A stretch of DNA of 64,000 bases from a virus, in IMG/VR virus record IMGVR_UViG_3300012000_000001, positions 133,027 through 197,026 of that record; one strand, given 5' to 3'. Made by a program: the position numbers and the translations under genes. Shown here piece after piece: positions 11,637 through 62,689 of the stretch (positions are counted from its first letter, which is position 1; each line of letters opens with the position of its first letter). The notes below the pieces were generated by a model. The model saw nothing but the letters and a program-made list of their open reading frames with translations, was not told where the DNA came from and searched no databases.

Positions 11637-11888
11637 TTACCTTTGAATTTTTGGCCATTTGCCCATAGGACACTCTTGATCGGCCCAGGCTAATTTATTT
11701 AAAAACTTTTTTTGTTGACTGATAAAACACCCACAAATATTACATTGACTTTTAATTTTATTAAATTCTTCGCAACCTAAGCATATATTGTGTCTATAAA
11801 GAATTTCCTGTTTGGTGCTTTTAGGAAAACCACCATAAATATGAAATAATAAAGACTTAATAAATGTTTTTAGTCTAATTAACCACAT
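11637..11888 (-). CDS. Small Cys-rich protein (DUF6171-like)
   Basis: R..IC..C...QCNICGCFI..K...QECPMGKW. Confidence 0.7.
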   Translation of the reverse strand: MWLIRLKTFIKSLLFHIYGGFPKSTKQEILYRHNICLGCEEFNKIKSQCNICGCFISQQKKFLNKLAWADQECPMGKWPKIQR

Positions 11889-36411: not shown

Positions 36412-36485
36412 CTTTCCATCTCCTGAATGTAGTCTAATTATGATTTACACCGAAAATGAAAATATCTACCATTTATCCTACATAG

Positions 36486-36570
36486 TGCCGGGGGCGGGAT
36501 TCGAACCCGCAGCGTTTCTAATGTGGGGGATTTTAAGTCCCCTGTGTTTCGCCAATTTCACCACCCCGGC
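36486..36570 (-). tRNA. trnL: tRNA-Leu (anticodon TAA)
   Basis: GCCGGGGTGGTGAAATTGG...GGGGA-CTTAAAA-TCCCC, long variable arm, GCGGGTTCGAATCCCGC, CCCCGGCA; CCA not encoded. Confidence 0.95.
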
Positions 36571-45985: not shown

Positions 45986-46006
45986 ATTAAATCTCTTTAA
46001 AGTTAG

Positions 46007-46356
46007 TGGAGGCGAGGGAAGTCGAATCCCTGTCCTATCGTTAGATCATTATATCTTCTACAAGTTTAGGATATTCATAAATTTTAAGAAAGACTAAAGA
46101 ACAAACAACATTCATCTTTCCGTACCAACTAATCTCAGACTAGAACCCGTTGGCAATCCTAGCAGCCGAAGGATTTTACGTCGATTTTTCGGGCGCTACC
46201 TTCATCGCTCCCTAAAACCGTCACTGCTTAATTAAGCAGCGAGAGCTAACTGTGTTTCGCCAGTTAAAGCGTTTAATCGACTTTTAAAGTGGCCGGTCGA
46301 TCAACCACTACTTGCAAATATAAATCACTTAGCGTAGTCGATACCATTACGCCCCC
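46007..46356 (-). ncRNA. ssrA: tmRNA; tag peptide (A)GETQLALAA
   Basis: 5' GGGGGCGTAATGGTATCGAC; TTTAACT-GGC GAA ACA CAG TTA GCT CTC GCT GCT TAA; 3' GGACAGGGATTCGACTTCCCTCGCCTCCA. Confidence 0.92.
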
Positions 46357-60708: not shown

Positions 60709-61223
60709 TTAGTTTCCCATGGAAAAAGTATCCATCTTTGGTCTTTGTTTCTATCTATAGTAATACTTTTATAATGAACACGAAAATCCTGAGATCTATT
60801 AAAAATTAGTGCGCATGTACGAGCATGTTTAAATCCATAAATCCTTAATTCATCTAGAATACTATGAAAAGTTTTTCCACTATCGCAAATATCATCGACA
60901 ATCAGAATATTACTATCTCTATTTAGTTCATTAACTTCATATAGTCTCACTTTATTGTCATCACTATCTCGTAACTGACAACTCATCATAATTAAGGGTT
61001 TATTGAATCGATGACTCAGAGCTATTGCGGGGATTAAACCCCCTCGTTTTACTCCAACTATATAGTCTGGAATCCAATTATCGGTAAGAAGCTGATGTTC
61101 CAAATTGTTTACATGAATATCAAAATCTTGCCATGAACATACTATTTTTTCTTGAGTTAGTGTTTTCATTTTAATTACGATATTTTCTGATTGAATAGTT
61201 TTTGTAGTTCTGTAAAACTCCAC
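60705..61223 (-). CDS. Purine phosphoribosyltransferase (Gpt-like)
   Basis: GVKRGGLIPA, LIVDDICDSGKT, WILFPWE. Confidence 0.88.
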   Translation of the reverse strand: MEFYRTTKTIQSENIVIKMKTLTQEKIVCSWQDFDIHVNNLEHQLLTDNWIPDYIVGVKRGGLIPAIALSHRFNKPLIMMSCQLRDSDDNKVRLYEVNELNRDSNILIVDDICDSGKTFHSILDELRIYGFKHARTCALIFNRSQDFRVHYKSITIDRNKDQRWILFPWETK

Positions 61224-61754
61224 GGTTGTCCGAATGGTTTATTATAGTTGATAGTGTTATCCACACCAACATCTAAAGTTAATCTATTTGACGATCTATC
61301 TTCATGATCTAGTCTGGAATGTACATGACCATATAAATGATAGCTACCTTTATGGCTTGACGGCCAAGAACGATGAGGATAATGGCTTAAAAAGATTTTT
61401 TTGTTACAATATGTGATTTCTTTAACGTCATATAATGAGGTAAAGCCATTCATATCAGTAGTAATTTCATTTATGTAATAATCTGTACGTTTGTCATGAT
61501 TACCAAAAATTAAATGCACATTTCTACAATTTATATGAACCCTATAATCTAGTGGTTTTTTGCCCTTGAAACAAAAATCTCCAAGTATGTATAGAGTATC
61601 ATCATGCTTTACAACTGTGTTTATGTTGTCAAATATGGTTTTATTCATATGATGAGCATCAGTAAACGGACGATTACAATGTTTAATTATATTATAATGA
61701 CCTTAGTTAGCCCGAAGGCTAACCAAAGTGAGTATCAGATATAAAATATATCAT
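61175..61754 (-). CDS. Calcineurin-like metallophosphoesterase, predicted to need a 19-nt translational bypass at 61721-61703
   Basis: MIYFISDTHFG (61754-61722) + HYNIIKHCNRPF...LGDF...GNHD...SH...LYGHVH...DVGVD in a different frame. Confidence 0.85.
61700..61726 (-). other. Putative programmed ribosomal bypass (hop) element
   Basis: GGT TAG CCTTCGGG CTAACTAA GGT: matched take-off/landing GGU, stop codon after take-off, 10-bp stem with C(UUCG)G loop. Confidence 0.75.
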
Positions 61755-62650: not shown

Positions 62651-62689
62651 TTAATGCCCAAAATGAGTATCGCTAGTAAAGTATATCAT
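62651..62689 (-). pseudogene. Stranded original 5' end of the metallophosphoesterase gene (MIYFTSDTHFGH*)
   Basis: 12 codons then TAA; ATGA-coupled to the upstream gene; duplicate of 61754-61722. Confidence 0.8.

Follow-up and report, generated by a model that had tools for sequence, protein, structure and literature searches.

The window analysed here is a 64,000-nucleotide stretch of a phage record, 197,026 bases in length and from a freshwater source, and on its minus strand a gene for a calcineurin-like metallophosphoesterase is split between two frames (Table 1). The short first frame ends on a Gly codon (the 'take-off'), and the remainder of the enzyme resumes after a second GGT (the 'landing'), in a frame whose first start codon is Met28; joined across the gap, ORF1 and ORF2 make a metallophosphoesterase of 185 amino acids. 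ORF2 matches PHROG 547 phosphoesterase (E 5e-36), the Pfam match is Metallophos_2, and the gene is present as a single copy in the whole 197-kb genome. The AU-rich 3' arm of the gap holds one UAA in each of two frames.

Every base of this minus strand is as an earlier, sequence-only reading described it, including those of the take-off, UAG, C(UUCG)G loop and landing codon, and the matched Gly codons, stop after take-off and T4-like tetraloop stem on which that reading drew all hold. The spacing that it gave stands as 19 nt between the GGU codons, and becomes a gap of 22 nt (19 + 3) by the T4 convention, in which the landing codon is included; the stem, put at 10 bp, is longer by three. It overlooked two things: the gap belongs to a putative homing-nuclease element, whose end it forms, and there is another hairpin 5' of the take-off.

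Table 1. Features of the split phosphoesterase gene and its element, in window coordinates.
Feature	Position	Strand	Remarks
Stranded original 5' end of phosphoesterase gene	62651..62689	-	12 codons MIYFTSDTHFGH, ending Gly-His, then TAA; marks insertion site
Putative homing endonuclease, 283 aa	61759..62610	-	N-terminal Cys4 zinc finger, NUMOD3 region, C-terminal HNH-like core
5' stem-loop	61726..61764	-	Start-codon region paired with Asp-Thr-His-Phe codons; ends just before take-off
ORF1, element-supplied new start	61722..61754	-	11 codons MIYFISDTHFG with DxH metal-binding motif; last codon GGT = take-off
Start ATG of ORF1	61754-61752	-
Take-off stem-loop	61700..61729	-	13 bp, both Gly codons inside
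Take-off GGT, codon 11	61724-61722	-
Stop TAG right after take-off	61721-61719	-
22-nt coding gap	61700..61721	-	UAG, CC-UUCG-GG tetraloop, AU-rich 3' arm, landing GGT
Landing GGT	61702-61700	-	Frame of 175-codon ORF ending at 61175
ORF2, remainder of metallophosphoesterase	61175..61699	-	LGD, GNHD, SHY, GHVH motifs intact

The AUG at 61754 has no Shine-Dalgarno (SD) sequence at normal spacing, an AGGA lying about 18 nt away. Upstream the frame stays open, and the true start could be an in-frame AUA close to the SD, such that 11 codons, or about 17 if the AUA is used, precede the take-off; an in-frame GUG two codons earlier serves as start in other carriers. The phage also encodes a tmRNA (tag GETQLALAA) and one tRNA-Leu(UAA), at window positions 46006-46356 and 36485-36570 (minus), and the tmRNA could rescue ribosomes failing to land; its tag presumably recalls those of Bacteroidota.

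A putative nuclease element in the active-site codons

The take-off hairpin is the 3' end of a MobA-like element of about 957 bp. Upstream of the nuclease-like gene lies the stranded old start of the phosphoesterase, from which it follows that the element entered the DxHxGH codons and brought with it that gene, a new start and the gap. A stranded start is also found upstream of the nuclease in relatives L005, L091, L098, L372, L374, L376, L381, L384, L385, L387-L390 and L392, and accompanies nearly all full-length nuclease homologues whose DNA was read; each of these (16/16) sits at the 5' end of a phosphoesterase gene, and in one further contig, known by its protein and not its DNA, the nuclease homologue comes after the phosphoesterase gene. 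Most 22-nt carriers have lost the nuclease and kept the cassette, with some retaining the nuclease's last codons. At the L391 nuclease locus it is the old, upstream start that seems to be broken, by a stop after His; the copy downstream is whole, with no obvious start codon. A scan of the window's own phage genome for further hops found only the stranded start.

The 283-residue frame has 237 homologues, NUMOD3 being present in 81/112, and His197, Asn219 and Asn228 of the HNH-like core are invariant. Atlas leads point to HNH clusters (0.88-0.90), and the best structural match of the predicted model (pLDDT 93.6), a weak one, is to an HNH nicking endonuclease (Z 3.8, rmsd 3.9, 70 aligned). Pfam HNH matches neither the frame nor its homologues, a sequence search of solved structures returned nothing, and Foldseek gave no match to the model at E 0.001. 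By its motif and the weak fold match, we regard the protein as a probable homing endonuclease.

Hairpins at and behind the take-off codon

The take-off stem has a folding energy of -18.2 kcal/mol (z -5.9, reached by 0/200 shuffles), and no other C(UUCG)G hairpin of the 197-kb genome exceeds 6 bp. Near-identity to the T4 gene 60 take-off, to which the sequence-only reading had pointed, is borne out by alignment with the T4 record: counting from the take-off, 18/20 bases are identical, the two mismatches forming one compensatory pair, and 14 consecutive bases are common to both counting from the stop codon. Over the 22-nt carriers, 97% of stem cells are paired, against 14-54% in slid controls. 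Compensatory change is seen at two stem pairs, both from one sequence (L383, in which UAG has become UGA, both partners have changed and the gap is of equal length), and one-sided change at three; the loop reads UUCG, UGCG or CUCG, and the two bases opposite the take-off GG are always pyrimidines among carriers. The hairpin is shared with T4 gene 60, presumably by descent or by capture.

Within the gap the only GGN triplets are GGG and GGC, at gap positions 9-12 in the top of the hairpin. The GGG is a candidate mini Shine-Dalgarno, lying 8 nt before the landing in the window, 7 in L092 and 12 in L091, against the usual 5-7 nt. A slippage barrier 3' of the landing is lacking, with only -5.0 kcal/mol across the next 70 nt. 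When the bare hairpin core was scanned in viral contigs and bacterial genomes, mostly terminators and chance matches were returned, with no convincing cassette in a cellular gene from the bacterial genomes. Amongst cultured phages none has the cassette or a full-length nuclease homologue, the sole match being T4 gene 60 itself, and there is therefore no ready model phage.

The second hairpin (-11.3 kcal/mol and z -2.5 in the window) is new here: a 5' stem-loop ending at the take-off marks hop carriers and not controls, being found in 19/20 of the carriers scored and in 0/28 controls. Scored on the 50 nt ending at the take-off, mean z is -2.3 for the hairpin class, -4.3 for short hops and -2.8 for a 4-nt class (both described below), against +0.15 for stranded starts, -0.31 for non-carriers and -0.6 for +1 slips (rank test p 2e-7, with relatives not independent of each other). 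The stranded old starts, which lack the hairpin, code nearly the same peptide as the hop starts, and the hairpin's sequence varies between lineages; it is therefore the pairing that is kept.

Relatives and a graded series of inserts

The insert is real, and an assembly artefact, for which the sequence-only reading had advised a check, is ruled out: it is present in contigs of four runs from three studies (X7 and X3 perhaps being the source sample itself or something like it), including a relative of about 92% identity, with no joint skipping it in the contigs of those runs, and it recurs at this codon in some 20 other contigs. Close homologues (63-82% identity) are of two kinds, those that are uninterrupted and read Gly-His directly, as had been anticipated (L001-4, L006-13, L015, L017), and those in which the 22-nt gap recurs at the codon where it lies in the window. 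Carriers of the 22-nt gap, most of them from pattern searches that demanded part of the motif, comprise L005, L014, L016, L083, L086, L088, L089, L093, L098, L100, L125, L138, L145, L146, L157, L381 and L383; the insert of L091 is 26 nt. On the protein tree carriers interleave with non-carriers, with seven changes; no bootstrap tree (0%) has a single change, and the starred branches force at least two.

Selection is evident on both sides of the gap. Among 14 carriers, dN/dS is 0.06 in the 11-codon ORF1, 0.15 over codons 12-27 (landing to first Met), which are reachable only across the gap, and 0.14 beyond Met28, close to the value for non-carriers. Every metal motif is intact in these carriers, and the downstream decay into a pseudogene that would have told against a hop is not seen. 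At silent sites carriers are more alike in ORF1 (dS 0.40) than downstream (1.6), as homing predicts.

How the DxHxGH motif is interrupted by relatives of the nuclease differs between lineages. One extra base at UUU-C or UUU-U marks L372, L374, L389 and L392, candidate +1 programmed frameshifts with the same nuclease family and no 5' hairpin. Inserts of 6 nt read Tyr-stop-Tyr (TAT-TAG-TAT) in L384 and Leu-stop-Leu (CTT-TGA-CTC) in L388; those of 5, 7 and 9 nt follow Ser or His codons (L387, L390 and L385), and those of 22 and 26 nt have the T4 hairpin. In L376 and L386 the motif is unbroken but changed. A further class, from gut phages (L094, L099, L113, L118, L133, L141, L144, L150, L152, L285, L296 and L310), has exactly four bases between Gly and His of the phosphoesterase, a stop followed by C (UAG + C in nine contigs); it has the 5' hairpin and no nuclease, its genes are highly diverged and otherwise intact, and it is a candidate for either a 4-nt hop or a +1 slip giving Gly-Ser-His. 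In all insert types the motifs of the downstream frame are preserved, and inserts of at least 4 nt are led by a stop in 12/12 types. In the same 12/12 the landing triplet matches the take-off at 2-3 positions (imperfect landings in several relatives being GGA, GAC, AGU and AGC), for which the chance would be about 5e-9 were the types independent and random, a figure that is overstated because some of them share an origin.

The T4-like core is also found at catalytic Gly codons of other genes, namely those for RNase HII (L090), a GT9 glycosyltransferase (L092) and purA (L400 and L421), the purA cases also having the 5' hairpin. In L090, a 388-kb phage, a T4-like cassette of 36 nt with landing AGU cuts the DEVG-RG motif (minus strand, take-off near 11843) and adjoins a DUF7487 gene. 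The GT9 cassette (L092:10231-10254) is 21 nt, in frame, with two stops, a 13-bp stem and GGU to GGC, and no nuclease is seen. Both purA cassettes have the UGA version of the hairpin and a strong 5' hairpin, one being 32 nt with GGU to GGU (L400) and the other 30 nt with landing AGC (L421). Topoisomerase cassettes of the published gene 60 type were met in L396 (at 6721; UGA variant, GGU to GGC) and L199 (GGG take-off). On the minus strand of L185, near 2128, a 97-codon frame ends in GGG-UAG-hairpin and is followed by a start-less 203-codon frame, possibly a further recoding site.

Decoding of the split gene and its relation to known systems

Bringing these observations together, we propose programmed ribosomal bypass of the 22-nt gap as the best reading of the sequence, and one that is very probably correct. 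No other route leads to ORF2, since read-through meets UAA after three codons, the +1 frame is closed by a UAA directly before the landing, and landing on either of the inner GGN triplets would give a wrong frame. We envisage that a homing-nuclease element inserted itself in the DxHxGH codons of the phage gene, stranding the old 12-codon start and restoring the gene by its own copy of that start; by analogy with MobA, we infer that the 22 extra bases at the nuclease target would spare the element's own allele from cutting. With Gly11 (GGU) decoded and UAG in the A site, slow decoding would permit folding into the small tetraloop hairpin, whereupon peptidyl-tRNA-Gly would let go and the ribosome slide 22 nt, re-pair on the second GGU and resume at His, giving the junction peptide ...ISDTHFGHYNIIK (...SDTHFG-HYNIIK). 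During the slide, the 3' arm of the 5' hairpin would exit the ribosome and zip up behind it, pushing it forward, and the closed hairpin may serve to hide the start codon from a trailing ribosome. A peptide signal of the T4 type could not act here because only about 11 residues are in the tunnel, and the 5' hairpin, judging by its distribution, is likely to be its substitute. Saying this, hop efficiency could be low, because the T4-type nascent peptide, which has a 9-fold effect and needs about 21 or more codons (10.1101/2024.12.09.627546), is missing.

Loss of the 22 nt from the RNA, whether as a tiny intron or as a hairpin that an RNA-repair enzyme excises before rejoining the ends, we judge to be very unlikely. 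The two gap ends do meet at the base of a single stem, and a GT..AG register with a CUAAC-like word fits the window, L098, L383, L091 and L092; these five are all hairpin-class inserts, however, and the register suits none of the seven other types, failing for L090, the 4-nt class and all 5-9-nt inserts, with its AG present because the AAG arm pairs with a Phe codon. No spliceosome is to be expected, given that the genome is that of a bacteriophage (tmRNA, coupled genes, SD sites), the window holds no group I-type U..G register, and an Rfam search gave no relevant match. Contigs of two RNA-labelled runs (libraries that may hold DNA) keep the insert with no skipping joint, and RNA removal gives no reason for an in-frame stop to be kept through the UAG-to-UGA change. 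A +1 slip at or before the stop, with the later UAA read through and the loop gaining about seven residues, seems to us extremely unlikely: a UAA closes the +1 frame in the window and most carriers (it is open in L005, L098, L100 and L125), and no homologue has extra residues at the site. The insert sizes 22, 4, 7 and 1 are all 1 mod 3, and the family has what would be true +1 slips (L372, L374, L389, L392), but inserts of 26, 21, 36 and 5 nt need other frames.

We give next to no credence to the idea that the element killed a dispensable gene, leaving the hairpin as a terminator-like relic and frames that survive by recency. The phosphoesterase is probably not essential, and the same tetraloop core is common as an intergenic or terminator hairpin in phages and bacteria; yet no U-tract follows the hairpin here, the cassette persists after nuclease loss, and carriers that are 60-82% identical in protein (dS about 1.5, dN/dS 0.14) have no stops and keep all motifs. 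Hardly more credible than this is a fresh start of ORF2 near the landing, with AGGU as SD and AUA/AUU or Met28 as start, and the 11-12-residue peptide supplying the DxH strand in trans. The landing codon does lie within reach of an SD-like UAAGGU, which overlaps it and is followed by Ile codons 7-10 nt further along, and split proteins complement each other in MobA and MobE elements, but His12 and Asn14 precede the candidate Ile starts and are nonetheless conserved, codons 12-27 are under selection, and take-off and landing codons matched for five different amino acids would be pointless.

To our knowledge, work on programmed bypassing has for 35 years drawn on what is essentially a single sequence, with a long peptide signal thought to be central. 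This locus and its relatives offer a natural series in one gene, with 0, 1, 4, 5, 6, 7, 9, 22 and 26 extra bases and compensatory variants, and the signals needed at each distance are therefore directly testable, as are the origin of the T4 cassette and the question of whether the slide is driven by pairing of mRNA as it exits the ribosome. Gene callers truncate such enzymes, starting them at Met28 so that the DxH motif is lost, and a 60-nt recoding module is on offer for synthetic use. We think it rather likely that a portable, RNA-only bypass module (5' hairpin, take-off, stop, optional T4 tetraloop and loosely matched landing) works without a nascent-peptide signal; that phage homing nucleases use graded recoding (+1 slips, 4-9-nt stop hops and 21-36-nt hairpin hops) as a third means, next to introns and inteins, of residing without harm in the active-site codons of many genes; and that T4 gene 60 is the elaborated end of a common series.

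In literature other than subscription journals, our search found no paper on bypassing in a metallophosphoesterase or on such nuclease cassettes outside topoisomerases, and the natural cases beyond topoisomerases are the terminase of Streptomyces phage Hau3 (PMC10732093) and the yeast byps. In Hau3, 10-nt blocks are bypassed, a 5' stem-loop has been proposed as stimulator, and mass spectrometry detected the junction peptide in E. coli when a stop took the place of UUA (PMC10732093). Like our locus, it has a short gap in a phage gene and a 5' stem-loop; unlike it, Hau3 is triggered by a hungry UUA codon, is thought regulatory, and has neither homing nuclease nor T4-like tetraloop. The byps of Magnusiomyces mitochondria, inserts of 27-55 nt in many genes, are likewise small, mobile and hopped by ribosomes with tolerant codon matching, but belong to a eukaryotic organelle, use an unassigned sense codon in place of a stop and reach up to 81 copies per genome, whereas the cassette here is one per genome and tied to a nuclease.

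The closest likeness is to T4 gene 60, where 50 nt are bypassed (the annotated gap including the landing codon), and to MobA, reported cases of which are all in the topoisomerase Topo2L (10.1101/2022.08.31.505936). Shared with both are matched Gly take-off and landing, UAG next, a near-identical CC-UUCG-GG stem and an AU-rich 3' gap; T4 too has an unused GGG within its gap. As in MobA, an HNH-type element supplies a homologous copy of the target sequence ending at the landing codon, the nuclease gene is followed by that element-encoded copy and the cassette, and the cassette can outlive the nuclease. The sequence-only reading's 'new, much shorter bypass' in an unrelated gene is right as to the gene and to 22 nt against 50; shortness is not itself new, the shortest published being a 20-nt Aeromonas cassette (clade 6, reduced stem; Manning and Atkins, 10.1101/2022.08.31.505936). 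In contrast to T4, take-off is at codon 11 and not 46, the KKYK peptide signal (T4 residues 13-29) is absent and the landing codon lies inside the stem. A forward slippage barrier is absent here and poorly conserved in MobA clades too, whereas the 5' hairpin is conserved here and not across those clades, and the gene is not split into two proteins, its whole start being replaced. On sequence grounds, we conclude that the locus very probably works like T4 gene 60 yet is not a member of the MobA/Topo2L family, since its target gene (a metallophosphoesterase) and its nuclease family (NUMOD3-bearing) are others, and it has neither CTE and NTE tails nor a peptide signal.
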